Numbered from the stretch's first letter, positions 7,952-56,483 are shown. The stretch: DNA of 64,000 nucleotides from an uncultured Alphaproteobacteria bacterium (GCA_944391535.1 CALXTY010000001.1:20-64019); one strand, 5' to 3'. Notes: generated by a model not told the origin, from the letters alone. Numbers and translations: made by a program.

Positions 7952-8053
7952 TGGATAAAAGCAGTATAGACAATCAAAGGTATTTTAAAAGTAAAAAGAT
8001 TGAAAAAACTTTTAATTTTTGCTAATTTTTATTTGTTTTTTATGGAGACCCGA

Positions 8054-18311: not shown

Positions 18312-19051
18312 AGATTTTATTTCTTTTTGCCATTCTTTTTTGCACACAGGCCTTTGCTTCATTGGAAGCCGGACAAAAAGCCTTTATTCAAGGCGATTAT
18401 AACAAGGCGTTCGAACAATGGCGTCAAGCGGCGGAACAAGGGGATTTAACGGCGCAACGCAACATTGCGCATTTATACCGTTGGGGAAAAGGTGTTCCTC
18501 AAGATTTAATGCAGGCGGCTTTTTGGTATTATACGGCGGCAAAGGGCGGATTGGATACGGCTCAATATAATTTGGGCGTGATGTATTTGCGCGGGGAAGG
18601 CGTTCCCAGAAACGAAGAAGAAGGCATCATTTGGTTGGAACGCGCGGCGGAACAGAACAATGAAAAAGCAAAGAAAAAGTTGGCTCATTTAAAAATCGAA
18701 ATTGATCACGAACTGCCGACGGAAGAAGATTTGCTTAAACCCGTAAAGCATAAACCTCAGCCGTCTTCAAAAAGTCCGTCAATAAAAGTGATGACGGTCA
18801 GTCGAAAAGAACCGCCTTTATACGCTCATTTGGCGTCTTATTATACTCAGGAAACCTTGGAAAAGGGGTGGGAAGAATTAAAGCAGACTTTCCCCGAGCT
18901 TTCAAAATTCAAGACTCTTGAAACGCAGGTGACGTTGCCCGAAAAAGGGAAATACATCCGTTTGTATATCAAGGGGAAACCTGAAGAGATCAAACAAGTT
19001 TGCAGTCTGTTAAATGCGAAGAAACAATATTGCCTGATCAGCTATCCGTAG
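18308..19051 (+). CDS. Secreted Sel1-repeat protein with C-terminal SPOR-like domain
   Basis: Signal peptide, Sel1 repeats (NIAHLYRWGKG, YNLGVMYLRGEGV), and a C-terminal ~80 aa resembling a SPOR fold. Start overlaps the mltG stop (ATGA). Confidence 0.55.
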   Translation: MKILFLFAILFCTQAFASLEAGQKAFIQGDYNKAFEQWRQAAEQGDLTAQRNIAHLYRWGKGVPQDLMQAAFWYYTAAKGGLDTAQYNLGVMYLRGEGVPRNEEEGIIWLERAAEQNNEKAKKKLAHLKIEIDHELPTEEDLLKPVKHKPQPSSKSPSIKVMTVSRKEPPLYAHLASYYTQETLEKGWEELKQTFPELSKFKTLETQVTLPEKGKYIRLYIKGKPEEIKQVCSLLNAKKQYCLISYP

Positions 19052-20105
19052 GCTGTTGCGGTTCGATTTGCGTAATTTTATAAGATTTTTCGGCTTTTTT
19101 ATTTGACCAGATCAATTTGGCATAAGTACGCATATCGATCACTTTATCCGTTTCATCGAGGATTTCTTGTCCGAGGATGGCTTCCAGAACGTCTTCCATC
19201 GTGACGATTCCCAACCATGTTCCCAGTTCGTCATAAACGACTCCGATATGGTTGTGAGAACGGAGCATTTCGCGGAAAACGTAATCGACACTGGAAGTGG
19301 AAGCGATTTCCAGAATGGGGCGAACGGAATGATCGATTTGTAATGTCGGATCTTTTCCCAACATATCGGATTTATGAACATACCCCAAAAAGACTTCTTC
19401 ATCCTCATTTTTCATGACGGGATATCTTGAAAACGAATGTTGCGTAGCGATTTGAATAAATTCTCTGACAGAGATGCCTGCAAGGACGGTGGCGCAGACA
19501 TTACGGGGTGTCAGCAGATTTTTAATTTTAATTTCTTCCAGATTTAAAGTGTTGCAAATCATCTTATATTCATCGTCATCGATGAAATTGGCCGTATGTC
19601 CCATTTTAGTCAAGGCCTTGATTTCTTCGCGAATATCCGTTTTAACGCCGTTTTTCGGCGTGATCATTTTGGTCAGCAATTCAAACAGGATCAGGAAAGG
19701 TTTTAACAGGAATAACATAATTCCCAGAACGAAACACAGGAAACCGACCAATTTATACCAGTAGGTGGCACCGATGGTTTTAGGAATGATTTCGCTACAC
19801 GTCAGAATGGCGACTGTCATGACGGCGGAAGCCACGGCGACATAGTTTGATCCGAACACGACGGCGACTTGTGCGCCGATACAGGAAGCGCCGGCCGTAT
19901 TGGCGATCGTGTTCAACATTAAGATGGCGGCCAGAGGCCTGTCGATGTGTGACTTCAGGAAGGAAATTTTTTTATACAGGTTGGGTTGTTTTTCTTCCAA
20001 TCGGGCGATATAGCTGGGAGTAATGGAAAGCAAAGAGGCTTCCATTAAGGAACACAGAAAGGAAATTCCGACGGTTAAGATGACCAGAATGACGAGAAGG
20101 GTCAT
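19038..20105 (-). CDS. CNNM/CorC-family transporter-associated protein (DUF21 + tandem CBS domains)
   Basis: Four N-terminal TM helices (DUF21) followed by a CBS pair. Typical of the HlyC/CorC family. Confidence 0.7.
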   Translation of the reverse strand: MTLLVILVILTVGISFLCSLMEASLLSITPSYIARLEEKQPNLYKKISFLKSHIDRPLAAILMLNTIANTAGASCIGAQVAVVFGSNYVAVASAVMTVAILTCSEIIPKTIGATYWYKLVGFLCFVLGIMLFLLKPFLILFELLTKMITPKNGVKTDIREEIKALTKMGHTANFIDDDEYKMICNTLNLEEIKIKNLLTPRNVCATVLAGISVREFIQIATQHSFSRYPVMKNEDEEVFLGYVHKSDMLGKDPTLQIDHSVRPILEIASTSSVDYVFREMLRSHNHIGVVYDELGTWLGIVTMEDVLEAILGQEILDETDKVIDMRTYAKLIWSNKKAEKSYKITQIEPQQPTDS

Positions 20106-20219: not shown

Positions 20220-21677
20220 TTATACTTTAATGATGCCTCTCCAGAACAGGAAAAGAGCGAAGATCGAAACGATCAGCAACAGCCATGCGAACCATATTTC
20301 GCGTTTTCCGAATATTGTTTGATTCGGATCGTTTTCTTTTCTTGACCAGATAAAGACAGGGATACCGGCGGTCAGGAACAGGACGGCCATTAGCAGATAT
20401 TCCAGTCCCGCCGCATAGATCAGCCATACGGCATAAGCGGATCCGAGGATCGAACAGATCAAAGCTCCGGATCTCGGGACGGCGGCGTTTGCCGGATATT
20501 CACCGTCTTCACAGATTTTCCACAGATAAGCCATACTTGACAAGTAAGCCGGCAGCACCATGACACCCGTAATGGAGAGCATTGTATTCCACGCGTTATT
20601 GGAAAAATAGACCATTAAGATCGCCAATTGCATCAAGGAGCTGGTGACCCACAAAGAAACGGACGGAGATTTATGTTCGTTTTCTTTGGCGAAGACTTTG
20701 GGGAAAGTGCCGTTTTGCGCTGCGGCGAAAGGAATTTCGGCTGTAATCATCGTCCACGCCAACCAACTGGCAAGAACGGCGATCAACAAACCGATATTCA
20801 TCAACCAACTGCCCCAATTTCCGACGACTTTTTCCAAGACGCCGGCGGTGGACGGATTCGGTACGGCGGCCAGTTCGGCTTGGCTCATAAAACCGTACGG
20901 CAGAACGGAGAGCAGCACATAAATAATCAGACAACCCAAAAATCCGATAAAGGTGGCTTTACCGACTTCGGCTTTATTTTCGGCTCTGTCGGACAGCACG
21001 ACGGCACCTTCGATACCGATGAACGCCCACAGCGTGACCAACATCGTTCTTTTGACCTGATCGGGAACGGATCCCAACGCCGCTTGTCCGTGAGAAACCA
21101 GATTACCCCAGAAATCGACTTCGAACTGATGAATTTTAAAGGCGAATATCATAATCAGGATAAAGATGAACAAAGGCAGGATTTTGAATATGGTTGCGAT
21201 TGTGTTAATAAAGCTGGCTTGTTGTACGCCGCGCAGAACGACGAAGTTGAAGAACCAGATCAGGACGGATCCGCCGATAATGGAATAAAGGTTGTTTCCG
21301 CCTTGGAAATAGGGCGGGAAAAAGTAATTCAAGGCGTCCATCGTAATGACGGCATAACCGACGTTTCCGAAGATTTGGCAAAGCCAATATCCCCAACCGA
21401 TTGTAAATCCCATAAAGGGACCGAATCCTTCTCTGGCGTACATATAGATGCCGGCGGTCAGATCCGGTTTTGCATCTGAGAGAATACGGAAAGAGTTTGC
21501 AAGAAAATACATACCGATGCCGGTAATCAGCCAAGCCAATAAAACGGCTCCGACGGATGCGCCGGCCGCCATATTTTGAGGCAAGCTGTAAATCCCTCCT
21601 CCGATCATTGAACTGATCACGACACTGGCCAGAGCAATCAGCCCTAATTTTTTTGTGTCATTTTGTTGCTGTGCCAT
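20220..21677 (-). CDS. aaxC: APC-family arginine:agmatine antiporter (AaxC/AdiC-like)
   Basis: 485 aa, ~12 TM, amino-acid/polyamine/organocation family composition. Lies immediately downstream of a pyruvoyl-dependent arginine decarboxylase. Confidence 0.7.
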
Positions 21678-21749
21678 TTTGATATCCTTTTAAATAAAAA
21701 AAAGCGGTATCGCTTTTTATTTAAAAAACAATACCGCTTGAAATAAAGA

Positions 21750-22331
21750 TTACAGTTTAACGGGGTCTGCCGTTTCGAAATTCAAGAATCCCAAAGCCGT
21801 CAGACAGTAAGCAAACTGTTGTGTGATATTGATATAGTTATGGAACAGTTGGAATTCGCTGTGTTTTTCAACGCCGCGTAATTCCAATTCGTGATTTAAT
21901 GACTTATTCAACCACATTTCGGCGTGTCCTTTGGCGATATCGTCATCAATGTAGGTCGGGAAATATTCGACATATTCCGCAGCCCATCCGCCGATCAATT
22001 TACCGTTTTTGTCTTTTCCCCAACAGATGCCGACGCCGGTGGCAATCGCGCGATGTTCGTTAATGCATGCTCCGTTTCCCGCAATAATGACTTCGAGAAC
22101 GGCTCCGTGTTTAAAGAATTTTGTCACCTTATCGACGGGAACGATATTATTATACAGTTCCGGCGGCAAAACGGACGTATAAGGAACAACGTTGAAATCC
22201 TGAATTTTTGCTTGTGTTAAAGCCGAGTCATAACAAAAAGTTTCAAACGGTTGCGGCGGAATGCCGTCATCTGCCTGTCCGGCTCCGCCTGTATGAAAAG
22301 CCAAAGTCGGATAGCGTGTACCTACTAACAT
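21750..22331 (-). CDS. aaxB: Pyruvoyl-dependent arginine decarboxylase (PdaD/AaxB-like)
   Basis: 193 aa. The VPYT52-S53VLPPE self-cleavage serine context is the same as in Chlamydia AaxB. Conserved GHAEMWL region. Confidence 0.75.
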
Positions 22332-22339
22332 ATCTTACC

Positions 22340-22537
22340 TCCTGAATAATATTAAAACAAAAAAGAAATTTTCCCTTTTCGTGAAAATATTAGAAAAAAA
22401 TAAAAATAAGTCATAGATAGACTTCTTTTCATAAATAATTATATCCCTATACATATATATATATTCTTGTTGTTGTATTCGTTTTTTGTTTTTATCAATT
22501 TATATTTTTTTTATTTGTTTTTATATGCGAGGATATT
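22340..22537. promoter_or_regulatory. AT-rich divergent intergenic control region (aaxB-aaxC operon vs porin gene), includes an (AT)n tract
   Basis: ~200 bp that looks strongly AT-rich by eye, with ATATATATATAT and A/T runs (curved-DNA-like), between divergently oriented genes. Confidence 0.3.
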
Positions 22538-23824
22538 ATGAGATCTATAAATCAGAAAGATGTGAAGAAAACGTCATTTTTTTCATTTGCATGCGCCGCA
22601 CTGCTATTTCCTTGCAGTGTTTTTGCGCAGCAAGTGACAGAATTTGAACTTACGGAACAATTTGACCTATCCGTTCCTCAGACAACAAAAAGCGGTAAAT
22701 TGTCAACACGGTTGAAAAACGCCATGCATCGATTGGATAATGATGTCGAAGGATTTGAAAAAAAATATAACGATTTTAAATCGAAATTATCCGACGACTA
22801 CGGCATACAATATTCTTTAGATGTGTCGTTTATGGGGCAAAAAGGCGTGCCGAACGGGGGAAAAACGGCGACACAAACCATTTATGCGCCGACTATGTCA
22901 TGGCAGATTTTTAATGATGACACATACGGTTCGGGAACGATTAATCTGTCTTATACGGCGGCGCGTTATTGGGGTAATAACGGTGAAAATATCGGGAATA
23001 ACCTCTATGTGGCCAATTCAATCAACGATTTTACGACGCCGTCTAACGCGTTTGACCAATTAAGCTATACTCAGTCTTTGTTTGACGATAAGCTTTCGAT
23101 TACAGTCGGTCAATTTCCGCTATATGATTTTGACGGGACGCAATACGATTCTAATCAACAAACGAATTTTATCAACTACGCCCTTTCTCAGAACGCCAGT
23201 GAAACATATCCGATCGCCGGATTGGGAGCGTATGTTCAGTACAATCCGAACAGTGAATGGTCTTTTGCCGGCGGTTTTCAGAACGCTCGGAACATAACGG
23301 GAGAAACGCTGTCCGCAAAAGGATGGGGGGATCATCGTTTTACAACGTTCGGGTCGATTTCTTATACACCGACGATTAACGGCCAGTCAGGGCAGTATTC
23401 CTTGTTGGTCTATAACCAGCCCAGCGTTGAAACTCAGCCTCAAAACACGACGGGCTGGTCAATCAATATGTCACAGAATTTGACGGAAAAATGGGGCGTC
23501 TTTTTGCGCGCCAACGCCGCGACCGGAGATTCCATGCCGATCACTCAGTCGTATGTCATCGGCGGAGTTTACAATAATCCTTTAAATCGCAATCCGTTGG
23601 ATCAGATCGGATTGGCGGTGGCTTACAACAAAGTCAGCAAGGAATACTTTGATTCCGCCGAACCGATGCGTCAGTATGAAACCGTATTGGAAACGTATTG
23701 GAATATCGGGATCACACAGTTTTTAACCATCGCTCCGGACATTCAGGTTTATATTCATCCGGCATCGAAACGTGACAGGGATTTCGGAACGGTATTCAGT
23801 TTACGCGGCACGATCTTGTTGTAA
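22538..23824 (+). CDS. Outer-membrane porin (OprB/AaxA-like)
   Basis: Signal peptide (AALLFPCSVFAQQ) followed by alternating amphipathic beta-strand-like sequence. Divergent from the decarboxylase-antiporter pair. Confidence 0.5.
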   Translation: MRSINQKDVKKTSFFSFACAALLFPCSVFAQQVTEFELTEQFDLSVPQTTKSGKLSTRLKNAMHRLDNDVEGFEKKYNDFKSKLSDDYGIQYSLDVSFMGQKGVPNGGKTATQTIYAPTMSWQIFNDDTYGSGTINLSYTAARYWGNNGENIGNNLYVANSINDFTTPSNAFDQLSYTQSLFDDKLSITVGQFPLYDFDGTQYDSNQQTNFINYALSQNASETYPIAGLGAYVQYNPNSEWSFAGGFQNARNITGETLSAKGWGDHRFTTFGSISYTPTINGQSGQYSLLVYNQPSVETQPQNTTGWSINMSQNLTEKWGVFLRANAATGDSMPITQSYVIGGVYNNPLNRNPLDQIGLAVAYNKVSKEYFDSAEPMRQYETVLETYWNIGITQFLTIAPDIQVYIHPASKRDRDFGTVFSLRGTILL

Positions 23825-24349
23825 ATTTTCACGAGAGCCTGCATTTATCAGGCTCTTTTTTTTATCTTTTTGCATTCTCCACAGGGTAAAGGAGTAGATC
23901 AAAATATTGGTTGTGTCTTCGATGGCGCCGCCGACGGAATGTCCGGCGATATCGTGGATCAGCCACAGGAAGCAACAAAAAATGAAACAGATTCTCAATT
24001 TGATGCCGCCGGAATAAGCGGCGACGAAAGTCGCAAGGACAACGGCGGCGACAGGTAACAAACTGTAAGGATTTTTATAACTCAGATAACCGGAAATCAA
24101 GGCGATCACCGCAAAAGGATAAGCGATGAGCGCGCCTTTGAAATGAATATTCAAATACATTCTGGTTCCGACGATGATTTTGGAAAGACAAGCGCTGAAG
24201 TTTCCCAACAAGAAATGATGCAGACTGAACAGCCCGTTTGATATGGCGAACAGGAGAAACAGTTTTTTATCGTTTTTTTGCAAAGCGCCGGTCAATGAAA
24301 CGGCGTAGGCCACATACCCCAGAATTTGCGGTAAAGAAAAAAATTCCAT
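23801..24349 (-). CDS. Inner-membrane protein, YgjV-like (183 aa)
   Basis: Six predicted TM segments. Start refined to ATG at 24349 (the ORF track starts at 24469 and would overlap hisF by 108 nt). Last gene of the ubiA-hisH-hisF operon. Confidence 0.45.
   Translation of the reverse strand: MEFFSLPQILGYVAYAVSLTGALQKNDKKLFLLFAISNGLFSLHHFLLGNFSACLSKIIVGTRMYLNIHFKGALIAYPFAVIALISGYLSYKNPYSLLPVAAVVLATFVAAYSGGIKLRICFIFCCFLWLIHDIAGHSVGGAIEDTTNILIYSFTLWRMQKDKKKSLINAGSRENLQQDRAA
23834..23863 (+). terminator. Rho-independent terminator after the porin gene (AGAGCCTGcatttatCAGGCTCT + T8)
   Basis: Perfect 8-bp stem, 7-nt loop, then TTTTTTTT. Confidence 0.6.
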
Positions 24350-24360
24350 TTTCTTAATTC

Positions 24361-25122
24361 CTATATCAGGCGGATATTGATCATGTTTTGCTTCAACGCT
24401 TTTTTCAGATTCGGGATCGGCAACGTTCCGTAATGGAAGATCGAAGCTGCCAAAGCCGCATCCGCGCATCCTTTTGTAAAGACGTCAATGAAATGTTCGG
24501 GATCTGGACCGGCGCCGCCTGAAGCGATGACAGGCAGGTTTGTGTTTTTGGATACCAGAGCCGTCAATTCCAGATCGAATCCTTTTTGCGTTCCGTCGGC
24601 GTCCATAGATGTCAGCAGGATTTCGCCGGCTCCCAAAGATTCGACTTCTTTAACCCAATCCAGCACTTTTTTAGGCGTTTTTTTCTGTCCGGCGTTGGTA
24701 ACGACATGGAAATCATTGTCGTAACGTTTGGCGTCGACGGCAATAACGACGCATTGCGAACCGAATTGTTCCGCGGCTTGCCTGATCAATGTCGGATTTG
24801 TAACGGCCGCCGTGTTTAACGACACTTTATCGGCGCCTGCCAACAATAAGGATCGGATGTCTTCTAATGTTTTAATGCCGCCGCCGACGGTAAACGGGAT
24901 AAAGACTTTTTTAGCGACGCGTTCCACAACGTCCAGCATTGTTTTTCGTCCGTCGTTTGTCGCGGTAATATCCAGAAAGACCAATTCGTCGGCGCCTTCT
25001 TGAGAATACTTTCCGGCCAAAGAAACGGGATCTCCGGCGTATTTCAGGTTTTCAAAATTAACCCCTTTAACGGTTTGACCGTCTTTCACGTCCAGACAGG
25101 GAATGATTCTTTTTGTCAGCAT
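24361..25122 (-). CDS. hisF: Imidazole glycerol phosphate synthase cyclase subunit HisF homolog (isolated hisH/hisF pair, no hisA)
   Basis: TIM-barrel HisF motifs ([23 protein letters not shown]). Directly downstream of hisH, without the rest of the his operon. Confidence 0.8.
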
Positions 25123-25126
25123 CGTT

Positions 25127-25714
25127 TTATCCTTTAATCCAACGTTGAAGGGTATCGTAACCGGTTTTTCCGCTTTTTTCGGGATGGAATTGAGTGGCGG
25201 TCATATGACCGACCTGCACGGCGGCGGTGAAAGGAATATGGTATTCGGCTGTCGCCGATACGATTGAAGGATCGTCGCACACGGCGTGATAAGAGTTGAC
25301 GAAATAATAGAAATCGTCTTTTAAAAAGGTGTTGGCCGAAGTCGTGTTTATTTTATTCCACCCGATTTGAGGTATTTTTCCTTGAGTAAACCGGACATTT
25401 TTTCCTTTTAACAAACACAATCCCTTTACATCGGGCGCTTCTTCGGACGCTTCGAACAAGACCTGCAATCCGACGCAGATTCCCAAGAAAGGAATGCCGT
25501 TCAGAATGACTTTGCGCAACGGTTCCGCCAATCCTTTGGTTGTCAAAGACGCCATGACCTGTCCGAAATGCCCTTGCCCCGGAAAGATCAGACGATCCGC
25601 GTTCAAGAGATCTTTTTCTTTGTCGGACACGATATAGTTGACGGCGAAAGAATCCAACAGATTTGTCACGCTTTTTAAGTTGCCGCCGCCGTAATCAAGG
25701 ATAGTCAGCATCAT
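25127..25714 (-). CDS. hisH: Glutamine amidotransferase HisH homolog
   Basis: Class I GATase with Cys nucleophile GICVGLQ and the catalytic His (HFHPEKS). Confidence 0.8.
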
Positions 25715-25720
25715 TTCCTC

Positions 25721-26641
25721 TCAAAAAAACAAAGAGCCGTACATAAAGAAAGCCATATACAGTCCGTAGCCCAACACCAACAAGATCAGGATTTTATCCG
25801 ACGTCAGGACATCGACCGGATCGGCGTATGTTTTTGATTCGATCAGCAGGCTGTAGCGCATGCAAATCAACAATACCAAAGGAACGGACCACACTCTTGC
25901 GTTTGACGGATCGGGCAGGACGGGAATGGGCGAGATGGCCCACAAAGCATAAAAAGCGATGGTCAGCGTCAAACACATATACATATTTTTATCAAGAAAT
26001 TCAGGGGTGTAGAATTTCAGGACACCGTTGATTTCATGATTATTGTCGATTCTTTTAAGCAATTCGTTACGTCTTTTGCCCAAGCCCAAATAAGCGGCCA
26101 TTGTCGTTACGGTCAAATAAAGCCAGACGGAGACAGTGGTTTCGATCAGGAAAGCCCCGTAAAAGATTCGGATCAGAAAACCGAAAACCAGAATGGCGAT
26201 ATCCAGCAAGGGTATTTGTTTAGCTTTCAGGGAATAAACGATATTTAAGACAAGATAGGTCAGCAACAACGCCGTTGTCGCGCAGACGTTTGAAACGCAA
26301 CGGTTAATGAAGAGCGAGGCGCAGATTAAAATCAGGAACAGGATTTTTGCGGTTTTAGGTCGGACTTGTCCCGCGGCGATGGGGCGAGTTTTTTTAATTT
26401 CATGAATTTTATCTGTTTCGATATCGTTTAAATCATTAAAGACATAGACGCTCGAAGCCATGAAATTAAAGGCCCACCAGCCGATAAAGACGATCAGGAA
26501 ACTTTCGGGATCAAACAGATGTCCGCTGAAGATCAACGGAGCAAAGACCAAAGCGTTTTTCAGCCAATGTTTTGGCCGGCATAACCGTATCAGAGGAAAT
26601 ATTTTAGAAAAAGCCATGATGAACTCCGCGATTTTTTTCAC
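25721..26641 (-). CDS. UbiA-family polyprenyl-phosphate prenyl/glycosyl transferase (DPPR-synthase-like)
   Basis: ~8 TM and the Asp-rich motif NDLNDIETD. First gene of an operon with hisH/hisF paralogs. Confidence 0.65.
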   Translation of the reverse strand: MKKIAEFIMAFSKIFPLIRLCRPKHWLKNALVFAPLIFSGHLFDPESFLIVFIGWWAFNFMASSVYVFNDLNDIETDKIHEIKKTRPIAAGQVRPKTAKILFLILICASLFINRCVSNVCATTALLLTYLVLNIVYSLKAKQIPLLDIAILVFGFLIRIFYGAFLIETTVSVWLYLTVTTMAAYLGLGKRRNELLKRIDNNHEINGVLKFYTPEFLDKNMYMCLTLTIAFYALWAISPIPVLPDPSNARVWSVPLVLLICMRYSLLIESKTYADPVDVLTSDKILILLVLGYGLYMAFFMYGSLFF

Positions 26642-26759
26642 AATAGCATTGTTTTTTTTAAAATGAAAGTGCGGACGGCTTTGTTAAAAAAGAGTGGATT
26701 TTTTCTAAAAATTTATTGCAAAATGGAAATTAAGGGACTATAACCTTTGTTAGATTTAT

Positions 26760-26835
<76 letters not shown>

Positions 26836-26837
26836 AT

Positions 26838-26866
26838 CAAAAGGGTGTCGACAGACACCCTTTTTT
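26838..26866 (+). terminator. Terminator hairpin after tRNA-Lys (AAGGGTGTCgacaGACACCCTT + T6)
   Basis: 9-bp stem followed by a T-run, immediately 3' of the tRNA. Confidence 0.55.
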
Positions 26867-26962
26867 GTTAAGGAAAATCGATTTAAGTGAATTGTTTTGA
26901 TCTTTTTTTTAAAATCTGTTTTTATTGATGCAAAACACCCATTGATTTAAAGGGCTTTTCAG

Positions 26963-27586
26963 ATGTCTGAAAAACTAAATTGCACTTCTTTGGAAACGCC
27001 GCGTCTGATTTTAAACGGTTTTAGCGAAAACGATTTTAACGACCTGGTTCGAATCGCTTTGGATTTGAACAAAGAGGCCATTCAAGGCAAATGTAAACCT
27101 TTTGTCGCTTTTTATAACGGTTTGAACGGTGTGTGCGATGAGAAAAAAACGCAAGAAAATGTCAGAATATATTTGGATCGCGTTTTGGGAAAGACGGACA
27201 CAAACGACGATAAATGGATGCATTGTTACGCCGTTCGGGAAAAACCGGATATGAAATTGATCGGATTGGCCGGTTTTGTTTTTTTTAGAGATTCTCGGGA
27301 TAAATCGATCATTCATCATGATTTGGGATACTTTATGTCTCTTCGTTTTCAACGGCGGGGCTATATGCTTGAAGCGGCAAAAGAGGTTTGTCGTCATTTT
27401 TTCGAACAATTCGATTTGTTGGAAGCGACAATGCATCCCGAAAATAAGGCTTCGTCTTCATTGCTTGAAAAATTAGGATTCCGTATCGTAGGGATTGATG
27501 AGAAATCCAAATATAATGGCGAACCTCGATTAAAATTTAAATTGACGAAGAACGGATTTTTTCATGCAAATAAACAAGCGGGATAA
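26963..27586 (+). CDS. GNAT-family N-acetyltransferase
   Basis: Acetyl-CoA-binding core resembling RimJ/RimL-type GNATs (FQRRGYMLEAAKEVCRHFFE). Confidence 0.55.
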   Translation: MSEKLNCTSLETPRLILNGFSENDFNDLVRIALDLNKEAIQGKCKPFVAFYNGLNGVCDEKKTQENVRIYLDRVLGKTDTNDDKWMHCYAVREKPDMKLIGLAGFVFFRDSRDKSIIHHDLGYFMSLRFQRRGYMLEAAKEVCRHFFEQFDLLEATMHPENKASSSLLEKLGFRIVGIDEKSKYNGEPRLKFKLTKNGFFHANKQAG

Positions 27587-27591
27587 CGCTC

Positions 27592-29301
27592 ATGTATAAG
27601 ATTTATGAAAGATATGAAAAAACATTCAATGCCCTTTTTTTGTTAATTCCGTATTTTCTTCTGTTTTCTTGTTGGGACGGTTTGTTTCGAGATTCGGATA
27701 ATTATACGCATGCTGTTCGTGTTCTTGACTTTTTGAAGAGTGGTGTTTGGGCGGAACAGCCTTTTGTCCACAGCAATTATCCGAAGGGGGAGATTTTGAA
27801 CTTTACGCGCATTGTCGACATGTTGTGGACTTTATGCGCGTTGCCGTTTATGCCGTTTTATTCTTTAAAAGAATCCGTTTTTTTCGGCGGCGTCCTGATG
27901 CAACCGTGCGTGGCGATTTTAACGGCGTGGGCCATAACGGTTCAGTTGAAACCGTATTTTGGCGCGATCGCTCGTTTGTTCGGTTTGATTTTTTTCTTTT
28001 TATTGCAGGCGATATTGCAAATATATATGTTCGCCCGTCCGGATCATCATACGATTGTGATTTGCTTGGGCTGTTGGCAATTGGCTTGTTTTCTGATTTA
28101 CATCAAAGAACGAAAAATCATTTACATGAAGCTTGCCGGCGTTTTGGGCGGCCTTCTTTTATGGGTGACGATTGAAGGCATTCTTTTTTCGTACGCTGTG
28201 GCGGCGAGTTGGGTTCTTTTATGGATTTTCGGTCAAGAAGACTTAAAATCCGTAAAGACATTTATGCTGTTTGCTTTTGTCGGCAGTCTTGTCTTTTTAT
28301 TGTTAAACCCGCCGTATGAAGGTCTGCTTTTCTTGGATAACGGGCGCTTGTCCGTTTTACCGGTGACCGCTTTCGGTTTTTCCGCGTTGGCGTTTTATAT
28401 CGCGGATTTATCCTGCTTTCATTCGGTTATGCAAAAAAATTCGAGCCGTTTCGGCGCAATTGTTTTTTTAACGATTGTGTTCAGTCTTTTATTTTTGGCT
28501 GTTTTCGGAGGCTGGAACGTGGTCTTCGCTCCGTATTTTCCTTCATCGATCAGAAACAGATGGCTTCTTTCCGTCGGGGAGTTCTTTCCCGCAAATCATT
28601 CGGGATTGGCTTTCGCGTCATTTGCTTTGCCGTCGATTTTTGCTTTTCTTTTCGGCGTGTGCGCTTTTAAATCGGCGTCCTCTCAAGAAAGAAAAGGACT
28701 GATTTTAACGCTGATTCCGTTGTTTTTCTTTTTTCTTTTAACACTGAAACATATTCGTTTTTCTGAAAATGCCGCCGTTTTCAGCGTCTTTCCGGTTGTT
28801 TTATTCTGGAATAATTTTATTACGGAAGGAAAAAAGGAAAGATCAAAATTTGACGGGGTTATTTTATTTTCGGCTTTTTGTTTCGGCGTTCTTTACCTAA
28901 GCGTCTGTTTGCTTCAGACTCAGGAAGCTTATTCTCATCATCAACATTCCGTTTATGGATTGGAACGAATTGTTCCGTATCTTTCCGATTTTGAAAAGGA
29001 CGGATCTTTGTTGGTGTATCCGTCTCAAGGCTCTGAAACCATTTGGTCGACGGAGCGGTTTGTAATCGGGACACCGAATCATCGCAATATCGAAGGCGTT
29101 GTCGATTCTCATGCGTTGCTGTACGGCAAAGATCGAAATAAGGTCATTGATCTTTTAAATAAACATTCTGTTCGAGGCGTTTTACTGACGGACGAACAAA
29201 AACCGACAGGCGTTTTGTTGAGCTTGGAGTGTGTGCAAAAAATAGAAAACACGCCCGAAAAACTGGTCTTGTATCGTGTGAATTTGGCAACGTGTCGATA
29301 A
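27592..29301 (+). CDS. Polytopic membrane protein, GT-C-fold glycosyltransferase-like (paralog of 42159..44021)
   Basis: More than 10 TM. First-loop Asp motif DSDNYTHAVRVLDF...HSNYPKGEILNFTRIVDM is shared with the 664-aa paralog. Fold assignment is an inference. Confidence 0.4.
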   Translation: MYKIYERYEKTFNALFLLIPYFLLFSCWDGLFRDSDNYTHAVRVLDFLKSGVWAEQPFVHSNYPKGEILNFTRIVDMLWTLCALPFMPFYSLKESVFFGGVLMQPCVAILTAWAITVQLKPYFGAIARLFGLIFFFLLQAILQIYMFARPDHHTIVICLGCWQLACFLIYIKERKIIYMKLAGVLGGLLLWVTIEGILFSYAVAASWVLLWIFGQEDLKSVKTFMLFAFVGSLVFLLLNPPYEGLLFLDNGRLSVLPVTAFGFSALAFYIADLSCFHSVMQKNSSRFGAIVFLTIVFSLLFLAVFGGWNVVFAPYFPSSIRNRWLLSVGEFFPANHSGLAFASFALPSIFAFLFGVCAFKSASSQERKGLILTLIPLFFFFLLTLKHIRFSENAAVFSVFPVVLFWNNFITEGKKERSKFDGVILFSAFCFGVLYLSVCLLQTQEAYSHHQHSVYGLERIVPYLSDFEKDGSLLVYPSQGSETIWSTERFVIGTPNHRNIEGVVDSHALLYGKDRNKVIDLLNKHSVRGVLLTDEQKPTGVLLSLECVQKIENTPEKLVLYRVNLATCR

Positions 29302-29307
29302 AAGGTG

Positions 29308-30429
29308 TTATTTTTTTTCGATCATCAACAACGGGACGCACATTTCTTTTGACGTCATGCCGGAATGATTGGCTTTAAACAAAATCGGATCCCGTTCGCC
29401 CGTAAAATAACGCAACGCCCTTTTGCCGTAAGCGATCGCAACGAAGTCCCCCAAAAAGTCGGGAACCATAAAGTGCATTTTGCCGTTGCCGATAAGGCCT
29501 GTTTTTAAAAATTCGTCTTTTGTGAACAAACGGAAATCATCGGAAAACAGGCGGTTGAAGCAGGCTTGGAAATCATTCAGGGCGTGTTCTTTGACAAAGA
29601 ACGTGATAAATCTGGATTCCAAAGCCGGCGGACGGATCAGCATCTGACACAGATCGGGATAATCGTTTAACGAGATTTCTTCGACATCGATTTCTCCGTG
29701 ATCCGCGGTGATGATCAGCAGGGAATCTTCGAGCCGATCCGCCAACGCTTTCAGATGAATGTCCAGATCTGACAGGATATCCTTGATTTCCTGAGAATAA
29801 CTGCCGTGTTTATGCGCGCTGGCATCAGGTTCTTTCCAATAAGCCGCAAGTAACTTTGAGTGATCGTTTTGTTTGCACAAGGAAAGAATTTGTTCACAAA
29901 AGGCTTTAAAATCAAGAGGATCGTTTCTGTCAAATTTTTGAATTTTGTGAAATTCGACAGACGGATTGCGCGCGGTTATTTTGTCATAAATGGTTTCATA
30001 TTTCAGAATATCCGTTGCCGGCGGCGGCGTTTGTAATTTTTTACCGCTGTAGCAGGCGGTGTTCGGGAAATTTTCGATGATTTCGTCATATTGCTTATAA
30101 TAACTCGACCACCCCAGCCAACCGCTTTCATACGGCGTCAATCCGGAGTGACAAGCCGTTGTCGCCGCTGTCGTTGTCGGCGGAAAGACGGAAAAGATCT
30201 GCGCGGAGATATGCTGTCGGATAAAGCTTGTTTCGGGCAGATTTTGTTCGATCAGATCCGTTCCCATACCGTCAAGGATCATGAAGATGACGTTTTTATA
30301 ATTTTTAGCCAAGCGTTCGTCCAGAATCTTTAAGGAGGAGTGAAACGTGTCGACATGATAATGCTTCAGTAAAGAGTTGCTGAGGGAAACAAGACTGTTG
30401 TCGTAATCGAATTGAAAAGACTTTTGCAT
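29308..30429 (-). CDS. Alkaline-phosphatase-superfamily enzyme (type I phosphodiesterase / nucleotide pyrophosphatase family)
   Basis: MILDGMGTD metal site, FPPTTTAATTACHSGLTPYESGW nucleophile region, and ITADHGE. Confidence 0.6.
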   Translation of the reverse strand: MQKSFQFDYDNSLVSLSNSLLKHYHVDTFHSSLKILDERLAKNYKNVIFMILDGMGTDLIEQNLPETSFIRQHISAQIFSVFPPTTTAATTACHSGLTPYESGWLGWSSYYKQYDEIIENFPNTACYSGKKLQTPPPATDILKYETIYDKITARNPSVEFHKIQKFDRNDPLDFKAFCEQILSLCKQNDHSKLLAAYWKEPDASAHKHGSYSQEIKDILSDLDIHLKALADRLEDSLLIITADHGEIDVEEISLNDYPDLCQMLIRPPALESRFITFFVKEHALNDFQACFNRLFSDDFRLFTKDEFLKTGLIGNGKMHFMVPDFLGDFVAIAYGKRALRYFTGERDPILFKANHSGMTSKEMCVPLLMIEKK

Positions 30430-36859: not shown

Positions 36860-37930
36860 TTAGAAAGTTGATTTTTCAAGGGTTACGGTCGTATCCAATC
36901 GTAATAACAGGTCGGTCAGACGTCTCAGGAAATCACCTCTGAGAACACGCAGAGGGACTTCTTTTCCCTGTTTGCTTTGGAAACTGATTTTATCCGGAGA
37001 TTTAATAAAGTTTGCAATCGTTTGCGCGATATCGGCGTTTCTTTGCCTGTGCGCATTGGAAAAAGACAGGTAAGAGACTATTTTTTGAATGCCTTTATTA
37101 CTCAATTCGGCGGGGCTGGGGGTATTGGGTTGACGCAAGTAAAGCGTGTCGATGTATTTTTTATATCCTTGCACCAAAGCTTTTTCCGTATAGGCAAAAG
37201 ACAAAGACGAAACGGAAGCGCCGTCTAAGAAGTTTTTCAAATCCGTCAACGAATTTCCTTTTTGAACCAAGTGTTTAAAGGCTAACAACAGCTGTCCCTG
37301 CTGCGCGTTGGAAATGTTTTCAAAAGTGATTGAGCCGCCCCAATGCCCCAGACATTTATCATCAATATCGGCTTTCAGGATCATTTTTTTAGCTTGCGGG
37401 TAATACGTATATTCTCCTTTAACGTTGGCGGATACATGATTGCATCCGGCCAATAACAAAGCATACAGAGGATTATCAATCAAATCTTGGGCAGGATTGA
37501 AAAAGGCTAAGGTATCAATAACGTTTTCATCCGATTTTTTTAACAGCCGTGCGATATCGATCAGGCGGAAAGAAACGTTTTTTGCACTAAAAGACAATTT
37601 TGTGGCGATATGATTTGTTTCTTTATAGTGGTGAACGACGAAGGTTTTTATAGTATTTTTTAAAGCGGGCAAGTCATTTAAACGAACTGACACATCTTTT
37701 AAGACGGCAAGATCGGAAACGGATAGATCCAAATTTTGATAAGAGATGGCGTTGCTTAGTTTATTGCGGTTTAAAAAGTTATGGATATTTTTTTGTTCTT
37801 CGTCTTTTTGCAAGAAGACCATGAAAACACCGCAAGCCGTAAACAGCAGAAGCAGAATCGTTACGGCGACCCACATACTTTTTGTCATGAATCGTTCTCC
37901 TGTCTGTACGGGGCGTGATAAGGCATCCAA
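36860..37930 (-). CDS. Hypothetical membrane-anchored periplasmic protein
   Basis: N-terminal TM and no known motifs. Overlaps the upstream unknown gene by 46 nt (operon). Confidence 0.4.
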   Translation of the reverse strand: MDALSRPVQTGERFMTKSMWVAVTILLLLFTACGVFMVFLQKDEEQKNIHNFLNRNKLSNAISYQNLDLSVSDLAVLKDVSVRLNDLPALKNTIKTFVVHHYKETNHIATKLSFSAKNVSFRLIDIARLLKKSDENVIDTLAFFNPAQDLIDNPLYALLLAGCNHVSANVKGEYTYYPQAKKMILKADIDDKCLGHWGGSITFENISNAQQGQLLLAFKHLVQKGNSLTDLKNFLDGASVSSLSFAYTEKALVQGYKKYIDTLYLRQPNTPSPAELSNKGIQKIVSYLSFSNAHRQRNADIAQTIANFIKSPDKISFQSKQGKEVPLRVLRGDFLRRLTDLLLRLDTTVTLEKSTF

Positions 37931-39588
37931 TTGGGTTTTTCATGTCTTTTGCGGATCAAACCGATCAAGTCGGCGACTTCGGCACAAGCTTCCTGTTCAC
38001 ACGCGGCGGCGGAAGACAATTCCAGAACACCTTCGGCGAAAGGAGCCGTTTTTTTGTGTTGTTTTTTTTCTTCCGACGTCATCAAACGCAGTCTGCCGCT
38101 GACAATATGCCATCCCGTCCGGTTTAACAAACCGCTGGTTTGCGTGATCAGGAATTCCGACGGCCATTGAGCCCATGCTTTATCCAGTCCTAAAGAAGCG
38201 ACATTTACCAACATATTTACCCTGATGGGTTTTTGTGTGATTGCCGTGGCTGTCAACATTGCGGGCAGGTTATCGATTTTGTCGACGCCGATCATATAAG
38301 CCAGTCTTCCCAAGTAATCGGATTTTGTCAATTCATTATAATCGGCCATCATCAGCTGATGTTCGCGTAAATCTTCGGCTCGTCTGGCATTTTCCCGCAA
38401 GCGTGCCAGATTTTGAGTTTTATCGGAAACGATGGTCCATTTTCCCCCCGGTTTTCGTTCCAGAACAGCGGCATAAATTAATTTTTCTTCCGCACTTTCC
38501 GTATCGGTATTTTTTGTTTCCGGCAGATCCATTCCCGGTATGCCCTGAGGAACGGTTGTCGCAAAGAATTTCATTTGTCTGGCGCCGAGGCAGAAGATAT
38601 CTGCAAAGCTTTCCGCCGTTCTCAGAATGTTATCGGTGACGGTATTTTCCAAAAACAGCTCTTCGTTTTCCGTTACGGCGGCAATTGTGAAAGGCGCGCA
38701 CCCCGACCATGGAGAGTAGCCCCCGTTTTTTTTGTTACGTTGACTTTTTAAGAAACCCAGATAGTGAATTTTTAATTCTGGATCCGAATCGATCAGGTAG
38801 CTGAGGATTTGATTGTTTTTATCTGCGCCGTAACGGTTCAGCAGGACAAGGTTGAGATTTTTTCGACCGGTAAAGCGTCCTTCCGTGAAATAGCCGTCAA
38901 GAGTTGTTTCCAGATGTCCCTTTTCATTAAAAACGGAGACTTCCGCACGTCCATAGATCAGGTTTTCCGAACAAGAATTGCTGCCGACGCTAATGAACCA
39001 GTTTTTAACGTTATCGGCTGTTTTATCGGTTGTATAAAGAATGGAGCAACTTTTATCTTTGGAATAAATTCTGTGTTCCAGAGCCGTTTGCGGATCAATA
39101 TGTGCGACAATTTTTTGTTTTCCCGCCGGCGGAGCCCATTCTTTGACGGGGAAACCGTCTTTGGATCGAGCGGTATTGACGGCGGCGGCTTGTAATTGTC
39201 GGATTTTTACTTTGAGCGTGCCTTTTTCCGGTTTCCAGTTGTCTGTTGCCGAAGCCGATCCCTGATAGACCAAAGTGTTTGCGCTGTATCCGTCAATTAG
39301 TGCTTGCAAGGCGGAAGGGCATTTGTTGTTTAAAACCAATGCGACTTTTGTCATTAAAGCATTCAATGCTTTTTCTTTGAACGCGGATTCTTCTTGCGCG
39401 AAGATTTTTAAATTTAATATGTCGTCGCACCATTGCCCTGAATTGGCTTCGGCGAATACTTCGACGCCTTCTTTTTCGGAATAGGCGATTCTTTTCATTT
39501 CATGTCCAGTTTGTATGTCAAGCGTTTGAGCGCTTGCCCGAATTGTCATGAAAAAAAATAAAGTCGCTGTTTTAAAAAAACTGTTCAT
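37885..39588 (-). CDS. Hypothetical secreted protein (567 aa)
   Basis: Signal peptide MNSFFKTATLFFFMTIRASAQ. No recognisable domains. Confidence 0.4.
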   Translation of the reverse strand: MNSFFKTATLFFFMTIRASAQTLDIQTGHEMKRIAYSEKEGVEVFAEANSGQWCDDILNLKIFAQEESAFKEKALNALMTKVALVLNNKCPSALQALIDGYSANTLVYQGSASATDNWKPEKGTLKVKIRQLQAAAVNTARSKDGFPVKEWAPPAGKQKIVAHIDPQTALEHRIYSKDKSCSILYTTDKTADNVKNWFISVGSNSCSENLIYGRAEVSVFNEKGHLETTLDGYFTEGRFTGRKNLNLVLLNRYGADKNNQILSYLIDSDPELKIHYLGFLKSQRNKKNGGYSPWSGCAPFTIAAVTENEELFLENTVTDNILRTAESFADIFCLGARQMKFFATTVPQGIPGMDLPETKNTDTESAEEKLIYAAVLERKPGGKWTIVSDKTQNLARLRENARRAEDLREHQLMMADYNELTKSDYLGRLAYMIGVDKIDNLPAMLTATAITQKPIRVNMLVNVASLGLDKAWAQWPSEFLITQTSGLLNRTGWHIVSGRLRLMTSEEKKQHKKTAPFAEGVLELSSAAACEQEACAEVADLIGLIRKRHEKPNWMPYHAPYRQENDS

Positions 39589-39649
39589 GTCGGCAACTAT
39601 AAAATATAATTGACAAAAATGACAGTATTAAAACGAAAAGGAAGAAAAA

Positions 39650-40651
39650 TTGATCGTTCCGGATAAAAAAACAGCAACATACCTCAACGAACCGGTTACT
39701 CCGAAAGGGGTTTTGCGTTTATGTCGGGCGGGTGTGGTGTCTGCATTTGACTTTTTAAAAGCGGCGGCATTGTGCCGGTCAGATAAAAAATGGAGCAAAT
39801 TTATTGTTTTGATACTGCGTTTTTTATCAGGACTGAGCTTTTTGTCGGCAATCTTTTTTTTCACCATATCTCAATGGGACTTTTTTTATCGGACAAGCGG
39901 TTTCACTCTTTTGTGCGTTTTGTTTGTTTTGTGCGCATGGTTTCGCGACCGTTTCGGAGCTGCCGATTATGTCGGTGCCGGTTTGATCGGATTTATGATT
40001 TTTTTGCCGGATGTTGTTTTTAGAACCAACGTGTTTTTGTATGAACAGTTTTTTTTATGGTTTGTTTTGTTGGTTGTCTGGTCTTGTTTTGCAAGACAAT
40101 GCGGTCTTTGGCTGTTGAGCTTTTTTGTTCTCAACGTTGCAATTCTTTTATACGGCGTCCAATTTGTCGTGCCTTCTTTTATTTTCAGTTTGTCTGAATT
40201 TTGTCTTTGGTCGGCGCTTTTTAATTTGAGCTGTTTGATCGTACTGGAAAAAGTCTCGGAAAAAAGACCGGATCTCATTTTGAAAGGATTTCGTTTTTTT
40301 CCTCTGTTATGGGCTTTTTCGCTTTTGCTTTTGGGGTGCGTTTCTCAATGTGTCGCGTCGGGAAAAATCAGTTTTTCAGATAGTTGTTTTTTGTTGTGTT
40401 TGTTGTCCTCAGTATTTTGCGGATATGTTTATCGCGTGCGCATACCGGACAGGCGGGTTCAACGATTGGTCTTATTGTTCGGAGCCATATGTCTTGTTTG
40501 TTTGTGCTATCGTTTCATTTATTTTTTTATTTTTGCACCTCGTTTGCAAAACACCTTGTTTTCCTTTGTTTTTTCGGGGATTGTGGGCGGCGCTTTGATC
40601 TGGGAGCGTTTGTCTGCTCTTCAAGTGAAAGGATATGAAAATGTCGACTGA
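39650..40651 (+). CDS. Polytopic membrane protein, DUF2157-like
   Basis: Soluble N-terminal ~55 aa followed by ~8 Phe/Leu-rich TM helices. First gene of a 3-gene operon ending in a GDYXXLXY protein. Confidence 0.4.
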   Translation: MIVPDKKTATYLNEPVTPKGVLRLCRAGVVSAFDFLKAAALCRSDKKWSKFIVLILRFLSGLSFLSAIFFFTISQWDFFYRTSGFTLLCVLFVLCAWFRDRFGAADYVGAGLIGFMIFLPDVVFRTNVFLYEQFFLWFVLLVVWSCFARQCGLWLLSFFVLNVAILLYGVQFVVPSFIFSLSEFCLWSALFNLSCLIVLEKVSEKRPDLILKGFRFFPLLWAFSLLLLGCVSQCVASGKISFSDSCFLLCLLSSVFCGYVYRVRIPDRRVQRLVLLFGAICLVCLCYRFIYFFIFAPRLQNTLFSFVFSGIVGGALIWERLSALQVKGYENVD

Positions 40652-41663: not shown

Positions 41664-42214
41664 TGCGTCGTTTTGTCGTCTTGTTTTGTCCTGTGCTTGT
41701 TTTGGTCGTTTTGATCGGTCGATATGTTTCTGATTCTCGATTGTATCATTCGCAAACGATTCTTTTATTGCCGGTATCCGTCTTGCAAATGGGGCAAGAT
41801 ACTTTTTCTTCATATGTTCGATTGCGATATGACAATTTTATTCCGGTTCGCGATTTGTCCGATAAAAAAGGCGTCATTGTCGTGGACAGATTAAACGACG
41901 GTCGCGTTGTTTTTGTCAGCGTTGCATCGGATCGTCCGTTGCGCCCTAGAGAAGTGTTATTAAAATATGAGATTGTTCCCTCTTTATCTTTTGACGATCA
42001 AAAGAAAGAAGCGAACATTCGTTTTGCTTCGGATTTTTTTCGTTTTATCAAAAAGAAAAAACGACACCTTTCAGCCGTTCGATATGCTGTTGTACACGTA
42101 GACGATGCGGGCAATACCGTTTTGACCGGATTGGCGGACGGTAACGGAATTTTATTGGTTAAGGGGTTGAGGGGGGCTTTTTTTGACAGTCATCGAAATT
42201 CACCCAGAAAATAA
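41660..42214 (+). CDS. GDYXXLXY-domain protein (184 aa, N-terminal TM)
   Basis: Size and topology match the family. The motif SYVRLRYDNF corresponds to GDYxxLxYDi. Confidence 0.5.
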   Translation: MMRRFVVLFCPVLVLVVLIGRYVSDSRLYHSQTILLLPVSVLQMGQDTFSSYVRLRYDNFIPVRDLSDKKGVIVVDRLNDGRVVFVSVASDRPLRPREVLLKYEIVPSLSFDDQKKEANIRFASDFFRFIKKKKRHLSAVRYAVVHVDDAGNTVLTGLADGNGILLVKGLRGAFFDSHRNSPRK

Positions 42215-46799: not shown

Positions 46800-46809
46800 G
46801 GGGGGTTCG

Positions 46810-56400: not shown

Positions 56401-56476
<76 letters not shown>

Positions 56477-56483
56477 TAAAAAC

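Follow-up and report, generated by a model that had tools for sequence, protein, structure and literature searches.

Gene content and layout of the locus

We analyzed a 64,000-nucleotide stretch of DNA from an uncultured Alphaproteobacteria bacterium (GCA_944391535.1 CALXTY010000001.1:20-64019), the whole of which is called the window here, around a hisH-hisF gene pair that lies between genes for a UbiA-superfamily protein and a YgjV-like membrane protein and close to a tRNA-Lys gene. An initial annotation had joined seven genes on both sides of this tRNA into one possible pathway, in which HisH and HisF paralogs would deliver ammonia for the modification of a lipid-linked sugar made by the UbiA protein, with an acetyltransferase, a membrane glycosyltransferase, and a phosphoesterase as further members. 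The open reading frame (ORF) list and the tRNA scan agree with that annotation on the genes, the tRNA-Lys, and their coordinates. What the comparisons below yield in place of a seven-gene glycan amidation pathway are known kinds of genes in an unusual, clade-specific operon arrangement, made up of apparently ordinary imidazole glycerol phosphate (IGP) synthase genes, a member of a polyprenyl-phosphate phosphoribosyltransferase family, and a species-specific insertion. The features are as follows.

23801-24349, minus strand: YgjV-like protein, 182 amino acids, a small polytopic inner-membrane protein (Pfam Imp-YgjV, E=3.8e-33); last gene of the operon
24361-25122, minus strand: hisF, predicted IGP synthase cyclase subunit of canonical type (TIGR00735)
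25127-25714, minus strand: hisH, predicted IGP synthase glutaminase subunit (TIGR01855)
25721-26617, minus strand: UbiA-superfamily polyprenyl-phosphate phosphoribosyltransferase homolog, 298 amino acids, carrying NDLNDIETD
26760-26835, plus strand: tRNA-Lys(CTT), found by ARAGORN and Rfam; divergent from the UbiA-hisH-hisF-ygjV operon
26963-27586, plus strand: GNAT acetyltransferase (RimJ/RimL-like, Acetyltransf_3; Pfam E=5e-18)
27592-29301, plus strand: GT-C-fold membrane glycosyltransferase-like protein, 569 amino acids, polytopic (predicted fold; no Pfam family)
29308-30429, minus strand: Phosphodiest/NPP-family enzyme of the alkaline phosphatase superfamily, 373 amino acids, cytoplasmic, no transmembrane (TM) segment (Pfam Phosphodiest, E=1.7e-17)
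42159-44153, minus strand: second GT-C paralog, 664 amino acids, of the same family as the 569-amino-acid protein (32% identity over 534 amino acids, E=6e-86)

The UbiA, HisH, HisF, and YgjV genes follow one another on the minus strand with intergenic gaps of 4 to 11 nt, a spacing that fits a single operon. The longest ygjV ORF extends to 24469, and both the homologs and the position of the HisF stop point to a start at 24349, just past that stop. HisH homologs are 194 amino acids long, which makes 25711 the likely hisH start. The UbiA gene begins with the ATG at 26617, which has GGAG 8 to 11 nt before it and yields the 298 amino acids seen in all homologs; an upstream GTG at 26641 was rejected as the start on these same grounds. 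An exact-sequence look-up with the GTG-start ORF matched nothing, because the true start lies 8 codons further in.

A terminator-like hairpin follows the tRNA-Lys(CTT). The GNAT and GT-C genes are 5 nt apart on the plus strand, and the NPP gene is convergent to this pair, with sstT beyond it. Downstream of the hisHF operon lie an AaxA/AaxB/AaxC-like arginine-agmatine module and a CNNM gene. Rfam searches of the window and seven related loci revealed tRNAs and signal recognition particle RNA only, with no riboswitch, T-box, or his leader upstream of the operon. Scans for consensus promoters and terminators gave counts at or below the shuffled expectation, and the att-like direct repeats looked for on either side of the GNAT/GT-C insertion were just short, chance-like matches.

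Related loci are numbered with the prefix L. Human gut metagenome contigs that all but coincide with the window in sequence, and so represent its species, include L014, which is 92.6 kb long, and L015, which covers 8 of the 9 window proteins compared, all of them 100% identical. The nearest labeled relatives are metagenome-assembled genomes named "Alphaproteobacteria bacterium," "uncultured Rhodospirillaceae bacterium UMGS1296," and "Rhodospirillales bacterium RUG12246." We refer to these gut alphaproteobacterial relatives as the clade.

HisH and HisF as canonical IGP synthase subunits

The window HisF scored 368.1 bits against TIGR00735, the hisF equivalog model (cutoff, 294.55), and fell under the cutoffs of the WbuZ model TIGR03572 (284.7 bits versus 299.7) and the AglZ/HisF2 model NF038364 (230.1 bits versus 310). 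HisH scored 192.4 bits against TIGR01855, for which the cutoff is 105.4. Structures of Thermotoga maritima HisF aligned with the window HisF from end to end (E=3e-89), and HisH of Thermus thermophilus (1KA9_H) matched the window HisH at E=4e-46, with the cysteine of GICVG and the histidine and glutamate of HPEKS in register. Clade members and Melainabacteria supplied 19 distinct HisF sequences for an alignment to the T. maritima protein; in the numbering of the latter, R5, D11, K19, E46, K99, D130, E167, and D176 were invariant in all 19, as were G80-82, S201-A204, and A224-S225. We take D11 and D130 to be catalytic, R5, E46, K99, and E167 to form the ammonia gate, and two phosphate-binding loops to be among the conserved positions. 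The pair is thus like known IGP synthases (e.g., T. maritima, PDB 1GPW/1THF) in length, in full-length alignment, in catalytic and ammonia-gate residues, in both phosphate sites, in the HisH Cys-His-Glu triad, and in its above-cutoff scores. It is unlike them in having no hisA, hisB, or other his gene nearby and in sharing an operon with a UbiA-family phosphoribosyltransferase and ygjV.

Outside the clade, the nearest HisF (78% identity) belongs to gut Melainabacteria, where the locus is a full his operon with the order hisC-hisB-hisH-hisF-hisA/IE-hisD. Searched by tblastn with the Melainabacteria HisC, HisB, HisA/IE, and HisD proteins, the 64-kb window yielded no further his gene, and within those bounds the initial description of hisH and hisF as an isolated pair is borne out.

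The initial annotation had further supposed that the two proteins are paralogs of the WbuY/WbuZ type. Like the acetamidino-sugar amidotransferases (WbuX/WbuY/WbuZ, together with PseA and HisF2/AglZ), they pair a HisH-like with a HisF-like protein away from a his operon. They differ in that the HisF of the window passes the hisF cutoff and misses those of WbuZ and HisF2, in that hisHF stands outside any polysaccharide gene cluster, and in that no WbuX/PseA-type PP-loop partner was found among the genes up to 10 kb away in L014 and L015, which are nearly identical to the window, or in the domain scans of the window. These scores, the identity of 78% to a HisF from a full operon, and the missing WbuX partner all speak against the supposition. 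Judged by sequence, HisH and HisF are canonical IGP synthase subunits and not WbuY/WbuZ-type paralogs, and their predicted reaction is the conversion of glutamine and N'-[(5'-phosphoribulosyl)formimino]-5-aminoimidazole-4-carboxamide ribonucleotide (PRFAR) to glutamate, IGP, and 5-aminoimidazole-4-carboxamide ribonucleotide (AICAR).

In L017 (positions 1086 to 1669), hisH is split into two reading frames and a 120-amino-acid product is called, the contig being otherwise identical; this is an assembly error or a natural frameshift.

Conservation of gene order within the clade

Gene order was surveyed in 44 clade loci with 33 distinct HisH-plus-HisF sequences. The hisH-hisF pair is kept in every clade lineage and ygjV in nearly all. 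Besides the order UbiA-hisH-hisF-ygjV, the survey revealed UbiA-hisH-hisF-Mem373-ygjV, with a further membrane protein gene, and variants of it that lack Mem373 and/or ygjV; an order with two ygjV genes in tandem, hisH-hisF-ygjV-ygjV; and, in one lineage, DUF1015-hisH-hisF-ygjV, in which DUF1015 occupies the position of UbiA. DUF1015 is the SerBK serine metabolism family and thus an amino acid gene (bioRxiv 10.1101/2024.10.14.618325). Still other loci have no UbiA gene and carry a tRNA-Lys or tRNA-Gly gene upstream of hisH-hisF-ygjV in neighborhoods that are otherwise different.

The tRNA-Lys gene marks a variable spot. It is directly upstream of UbiA in L001 and L004 and directly upstream of hisH in the UbiA-less loci L102, L109, and L110. 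Relatives with a 76% identical UbiA protein have the tRNA-Lys gene and then sstT directly, with the GNAT, GT-C, and NPP genes absent. In a neighbor-joining tree of HisH plus HisF, UbiA-less lineages are interspersed among UbiA-bearing ones, a pattern that suggests repeated loss of UbiA (or, with lower probability, repeated gain) next to a stable hisHF-ygjV. As a set, the seven genes fail to co-occur, and the conserved core is hisH-hisF-ygjV. The proposal of a single pathway with co-occurring members fails at this point, the GNAT and GT-C genes being species-specific, the NPP gene being present in few species, and UbiA being missing from several hisH-hisF-ygjV lineages.

A metagenome scan with a YgjV alignment likewise found hisH-hisF directly upstream of ygjV in each of the 18 clade-type loci that had an upstream flank. 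Tandem ygjV duplicates follow hisF in L112, L113, L114, and L115, with copies that are 44 to 52% identical to the window protein. The strict linkage of hisHF and ygjV in one clade is the first contextual lead to what YgjV-family proteins do; published work reports no function for this family, which we take to belong to Pfam's MtN3-like clan. A comparison by hhalign for an internal repeat of 3+3 TM helices, of the PQ-loop/SemiSWEET kind, was not significant (E=0.5), and the AlphaFold2 (AF2) model made from the YgjV sequence alone was of unusable quality, with a predicted local distance difference test score (pLDDT) of 58 and a predicted template modeling score (pTM) of 0.28. Mem373 is a 373-amino-acid polytopic membrane protein without a Pfam or NCBIfam match that is encoded between hisF and ygjV (L030:4935-6056, L031, L032, and L117 to L120) and has shrunk to a 108-amino-acid remnant in L034, L008, and L122.

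One locus, L030 (CAVCSV010000008.1), comes from a bin labeled "Limosilactobacillus gorillae" and carries the alphaproteobacterial synteny UbiA-hisH-hisF-Mem373-ygjV-OprB-AaxC; it is very probably mis-binned.

The UbiA-family protein and its relatives

The best NCBIfam matches of the UbiA protein were to the models for decaprenyl-phosphate phosphoribosyltransferase (DPPR synthase), at E=6e-56, although the scores stayed below the equivalog cutoffs (189.8 bits versus 207 and 172.3 versus 234). The quinone models MenA and UbiA gave E values of 1e-3 and 2e-9, and the heme O synthase model was also far weaker. The sole sequence matches in the PDB were to Mycobacterium tuberculosis Rv3806c (8J8J/8J8K), over the full length, with residues 8 to 284 aligned to 16 to 291. 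These results uphold the initial call of a polyprenyl-phosphate transferase bearing NDLNDIETD and dispose of a menaquinone or ubiquinone prenyltransferase ortholog, the identity that the initial annotation had named as fatal to its proposal. In an alignment of 16 sequences from the clade and its relatives in the Bacillota, N61, D62, D65, and D69 of the NDxxDxxxD motif and G180-K181-R182 with the following glutamate (GKRxxE) were invariant or nearly so. The window protein retains all 61 family-invariant positions, catalytic motifs included, despite a divergence of 50% within the clade, which argues that the gene is under selection. Mutagenesis of the Citrobacter youngae enzyme showed the N-D-x-x-D-x-x-x-D motif of loop II to be essential, whereas the R..E residues of loop IV are conserved in the active site, yet their alanine mutants stayed active (PMC11127046). 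The sequence evidence places the protein in the polyprenyl-phosphate phosphoribosyltransferase (PPPRS) family of Rv3806c and not with MenA or UbiA, as a member that is not a certified equivalog. Most likely, it transfers ribose 5-phosphate from phosphoribosyl pyrophosphate (PRPP) to polyprenyl phosphate, and because the host is Gram negative the lipid would be undecaprenyl phosphate.

Among 185,579 species genomes, a search with the UbiA alignment picked out 80 loci. In all 13 of the gut alphaproteobacterial loci, which include the probably mis-binned L030, hisH-hisF comes directly after UbiA. The remaining 67 loci, with 44 to 51% identity, are mostly from Bacillota along with a few differently labeled bins, and none has hisH or hisF within 10 kb. 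Immediately downstream of UbiA, 34 of these 67 carry a haloacid dehalogenase (HAD) family hydrolase gene, and large polytopic proteins recur upstream, including GT-Cs of the PMT_2 and GtrII types. A 546-amino-acid protein encoded beside a Christensenellaceae UbiA was considered as a relative of the 569-amino-acid GT-C protein and showed no similarity to it.

Three-component pentofuranose systems, as set out by Kelly et al. 2024 (PMC11127046), combine a PPPRS and its phosphatase with a flippase and a GT-C. The UbiA neighborhoods outside the clade match two of these three parts, the flippase not having been searched for in them. The initial annotation had stated that its gene combination matches no described pathway; for the portion made up of UbiA, phosphatase, and GT-C, this is outdated, because Kelly et al. 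2024 described the three-component systems (PMC11127046). A close comparison is offered by the C. youngae O1/O2 system, with the PPPRS-PRP ORF15, the MATE flippase ORF14, and the GT136 GT-C ORF12 (PMC11127046). The points in common are the N-D-x-x-D-x-x-x-D and R..E motifs of the window UbiA, the presence within 4 kb of genes for a phosphoesterase and a GT-C-fold protein, and, for the Bacillota relatives of this UbiA, an HAD phosphatase and GT-Cs as neighbors. Unlike the C. youngae system, the window has no HAD (PRP) domain or gene and no recognizable flippase or epimerase, its GT-C is nearer to STT3/AglB than to ArnT, the GT-C and NPP genes are not conserved with UbiA in the clade, and hisHF takes the usual position of the phosphatase. 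No flippase of the MATE, SMR, or GtrA type was recognized in the locus, the membrane proteins of the operon being YgjV and, in one sub-clade, Mem373. With the mycobacterial decaprenyl-phospho-arabinose pathway (Rv3806c, Rv3807c, DprE1/DprE2, Rv3789, and Emb/Aft), the window shares a full-length homolog of Rv3806c; it differs in that this homolog scores 190 bits against an equivalog cutoff of 207 and in that the window revealed neither DprE1/E2 nor a PAP2 phosphatase nor a GT-C of the Emb/Aft type.

The GT-C, GNAT, and NPP genes

The 569-amino-acid protein has at least 11 TM helices and a C-terminal globular domain. An AF2 model built from 14 sequences had a pLDDT of 84.7 and a pTM of 0.87, and a Foldseek search of the PDB with it placed AglB, STT3, and PglB on top (E values from 9e-11 to 3e-6, query-normalized template modeling scores [TMq] of 0.5 to 0.7), with DPY19 and ArnT next among the listed matches, which extended to E=8e-4. 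The acidic pair D34/D36 after TM helix 1 and D151, H152, and H153 of a DHH motif are invariant or nearly so. From the model we are confident that the protein adopts an STT3/AglB-like GT-C fold, in keeping with the initial suggestion of a GT-C-fold membrane protein; the GNAT and NPP calls of that annotation likewise have Pfam support. The oligosaccharyltransferases STT3/AglB/PglB (GT66, GT-C_A fold) are not only the best structural matches but also have in common with the window protein 11 to 13 TM helices, a first external loop with acidic residues, and a mixed alpha/beta domain at the C terminus. The differences are a sequence identity of about 13%, no WWDxG motif that we could see, no match to Pfam STT3, and a weak match to the archaeal STT3 model of NCBIfam (E=2e-5, 22.9 bits versus a cutoff of 450).

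The family is large. A profile search gave 2888 clusters at 50% identity with E≤1e-3 and 595 with E≤1e-30, and none of the 8 members scanned reached a Pfam gathering score; a sizable GT-C family of about 2,900 such clusters, with an STT3-like fold and no Pfam model, is thus added. There are at least three paralogous lines of this uncharacterized STT3/AglB-like family (window 27592-29301 and 42159-44153; L018 to L021). Elsewhere, homologs of the 569-amino-acid protein adjoin efflux pumps, peptidases, or an HAD gene and never UbiA, hisHF, GNAT, or NPP. One distant family member gave a weak AglB core-like match. Mem373 was tried as a relative of the 569-amino-acid protein, and a profile comparison found no similarity.

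Of the clade loci, only L014 and L015, which belong to the window species, carry the GNAT and GT-C genes, and in no clade locus outside that species does a GT-C gene adjoin UbiA, as it would if it were conserved with the PPPRS. The NPP protein shows a weak match to ENPP4 around the DASAH and DHG metal motifs. Orthologs of it with 94% and 74% identity are encoded between sstT and the tRNA or UbiA in two other species representatives, L023 and L026, and others occur in the metagenome loci L106 and L121; no NPP gene lies near the UbiA homolog in any of the 67 loci outside the clade.

Interpretation of the locus

We consider it somewhat probable that the region is a mosaic of three units and not one pathway and that hisHF encodes a housekeeping IGP synthase. 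The hisH-hisF-ygjV core would be one unit, consisting of a small membrane protein and a standard IGP synthase, which we infer to take part in making histidine together with his genes located in other parts of the genome. Another unit would be the UbiA-family gene, which some clade members carry between tRNA-Lys and hisH and whose product would be the source of the lipid-linked donor for a three-component pentofuranose glycosylation system; its co-transcription with hisHF would reflect operon history in the clade, not shared chemistry. The variable side of the tRNA would make up the remaining unit, where the window species may have acquired the GNAT and GT-C pair beside an NPP gene found in few relatives. 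Speculatively, the GT-C protein or its paralog at 42 to 44 kb may use the lipid-linked pentose, and the NPP enzyme may be a 5-phosphatase that replaces the missing HAD phosphatase. That the PPPRS homolog feeds lipid-linked pentofuranose to one of the GT-C paralogs is a tentative proposal, possible more than probable, with no conserved co-occurrence behind the link.

Several observations weigh against this mosaic reading. The genes hisA, hisB, hisC, hisD, and hisI/E were not found in the window or in about 45 clade loci (with up to 10 kb of flank each), and to our knowledge it is unusual for Alphaproteobacteria to have hisH and hisF side by side where hisA and hisB are missing. We infer that the clade belongs to the GTDB order RF32. 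This order of gut Alphaproteobacteria is described as genome-reduced and of low biosynthetic capacity (PMC13155120, PMC13196213), so that a complete his pathway in the clade is not assured; the RF32 literature makes general statements about reduced metabolism and says nothing on histidine. The fact that ygjV follows hisHF in several differing genomic contexts argues for a real functional tie, which housekeeping leaves unexplained. In the sub-clade with the order UbiA-HisH-HisF-Mem373-YgjV, the stop and start codons overlap, an arrangement tighter than casual neighborhood. Lastly, the HAD phosphatase that is typical of PPPRS systems adjoins UbiA in no clade locus.

Some of these same facts suggest that the IGP synthase may be an orphan module, kept as hisH-hisF-ygjV for another purpose while the rest of the his pathway is absent. 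It would then process an imported or cross-fed intermediate of the histidine or purine pathway, with YgjV as a transporter and AICAR and/or IGP as useful products. We regard this as unlikely, although it would account for the conservation of the unit across at least five upstream and downstream contexts, for hisH-hisF standing directly upstream of ygjV in 18 of 18 flanked metagenome loci, and for the finding that other his genes were seen in no locus. RF32-type gut Alphaproteobacteria are also reported to be without ammonia assimilation as well as genome-reduced (PMC13196213, PMC13155120), and the nearest outside HisF, from gut Melainabacteria with hisH and hisF adjacent, fits an acquisition of this pair alone. 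Against an orphan module stands the perfect conservation of the PRFAR-binding and catalytic residues, by which PRFAR should still be the substrate of HisHF. The only known source of PRFAR is the sequence of HisG, HisI/E, and HisA, and bis-phosphorylated intermediates are not normally transported. Clade loci encode other amino acid enzymes (ThrC, the SerBK-type DUF1015, and a CysK-like PALP enzyme), and the loci represent a small fraction of each genome. We think it rather unlikely that a canonical-looking orphan IGP synthase is hard-wired to YgjV across an order of genome-reduced gut Alphaproteobacteria, with a translational coupling to a PPPRS and Mem373 in one sub-clade. If the his pathway is otherwise absent, HisHF and YgjV could together form a new module for the salvage or cross-feeding of a histidine or purine pathway intermediate; a different possibility is a membrane-associated role of HisHF in connection with PRPP and lipid-linked ribose-phosphate chemistry. 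This second possibility calls to mind the unexplained effects that HisHF overproduction has on the cell envelope of Salmonella. In the absence of the rest of the pathway from the clade, hisH-hisF-ygjV would be a puzzle of metabolic dependence in abundant uncultured gut bacteria.

The amidation model of the initial annotation, with HisH and HisF as ammonia-delivering paralogs that modify a UbiA-made lipid-linked (phospho)ribose or glycan and with the GNAT, GT-C, and NPP proteins completing the pathway, is largely refuted by the comparative data, and we hold it to be very improbable. It draws on the operon shared by UbiA, HisH, and HisF in 13 of 13 UbiA-bearing clade species representatives, on the translational coupling to the further polytopic protein Mem373 in one sub-clade, and on the placement of hisHF where Bacillota loci have the HAD phosphatase. 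It is at odds with the housekeeping type of HisF and HisH by curated cutoffs and residues, with the lack of a WbuX/PseA-type PP-loop partner nearby, with the persistence of hisHF-ygjV without UbiA, with the linkage of hisHF to none of the 67 UbiA homologs outside the clade, and with the species-specific GNAT and GT-C genes. The UbiA gene might instead be a relic that travels with the operon and has no dedicated GT-C or phosphatase partner, in which case the GNAT and GT-C proteins would modify an unrelated acceptor, for example, in protein glycosylation or acetylation. Its apparent repeated loss in the clade, the fact that no HAD phosphatase or flippase gene adjoins it, and the structural resemblance of the GT-C to protein oligosaccharyltransferases and not to ArnT-like GT136 enzymes would all suit a relic, which we nevertheless deem improbable since the 61 retained family-invariant positions speak for selection and the WWDxG motif typical of oligosaccharyltransferases was not seen in the GT-C.

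Other features of the window

The window has several further gene groups. At 20220-23824 are genes for an AaxA-like OprB porin (NCBIfam porin AaxA, E=1e-97, below the cutoff), a pyruvoyl arginine decarboxylase, and an amino acid permease in the position of the AaxC antiporter. This AaxA/B/C-like arginine-agmatine acid resistance module, of a kind best known from Chlamydia, lies downstream of the hisHF operon in most clade loci. The neighboring CNNM/CBS transporter gene (19038-20105) is intact in the window, encoding 355 amino acids, and is split into ORFs of 61 and 293 amino acids in the near-identical L014 and in L016/L017.

At 8000-10670, a gene for a MurL-like UDP-MurNAc-L-Ala-L-Glu epimerase (NCBIfam E=3e-138, 461 bits versus a cutoff of 700) overlaps a Mur ligase gene. 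The pair looks like the MurD2/MurL alternative D-glutamate route in peptidoglycan synthesis, here in a gut alphaproteobacterium; the route is described in Xanthomonadales. A low-GC (31 to 37%) island follows a tRNA-Ala gene at 56401-63864 and is a defense island at a tRNA, with genes for an ArdC-like anti-restriction protein/metallopeptidase, Shedu SduA, and a Gabija-like pair (an OLD-type TOPRIM ATPase and a UvrD helicase). At 45018-51210, genes for the alpha (with biotin domain) and beta subunits of an oxaloacetate decarboxylase Na+ pump are followed by two tandem genes for proteins that combine tetratricopeptide repeats with an S-adenosylmethionine-dependent methyltransferase. A run of conserved genes with no family above cutoff occupies 36860-41663 and encodes a 567-amino-acid soluble protein, a 356-amino-acid protein with one predicted TM helix, and two proteins with 9 TM helices (333 and 342 amino acids); the 567- and 356-amino-acid proteins are conserved also in related species (L001, L024, and L026).

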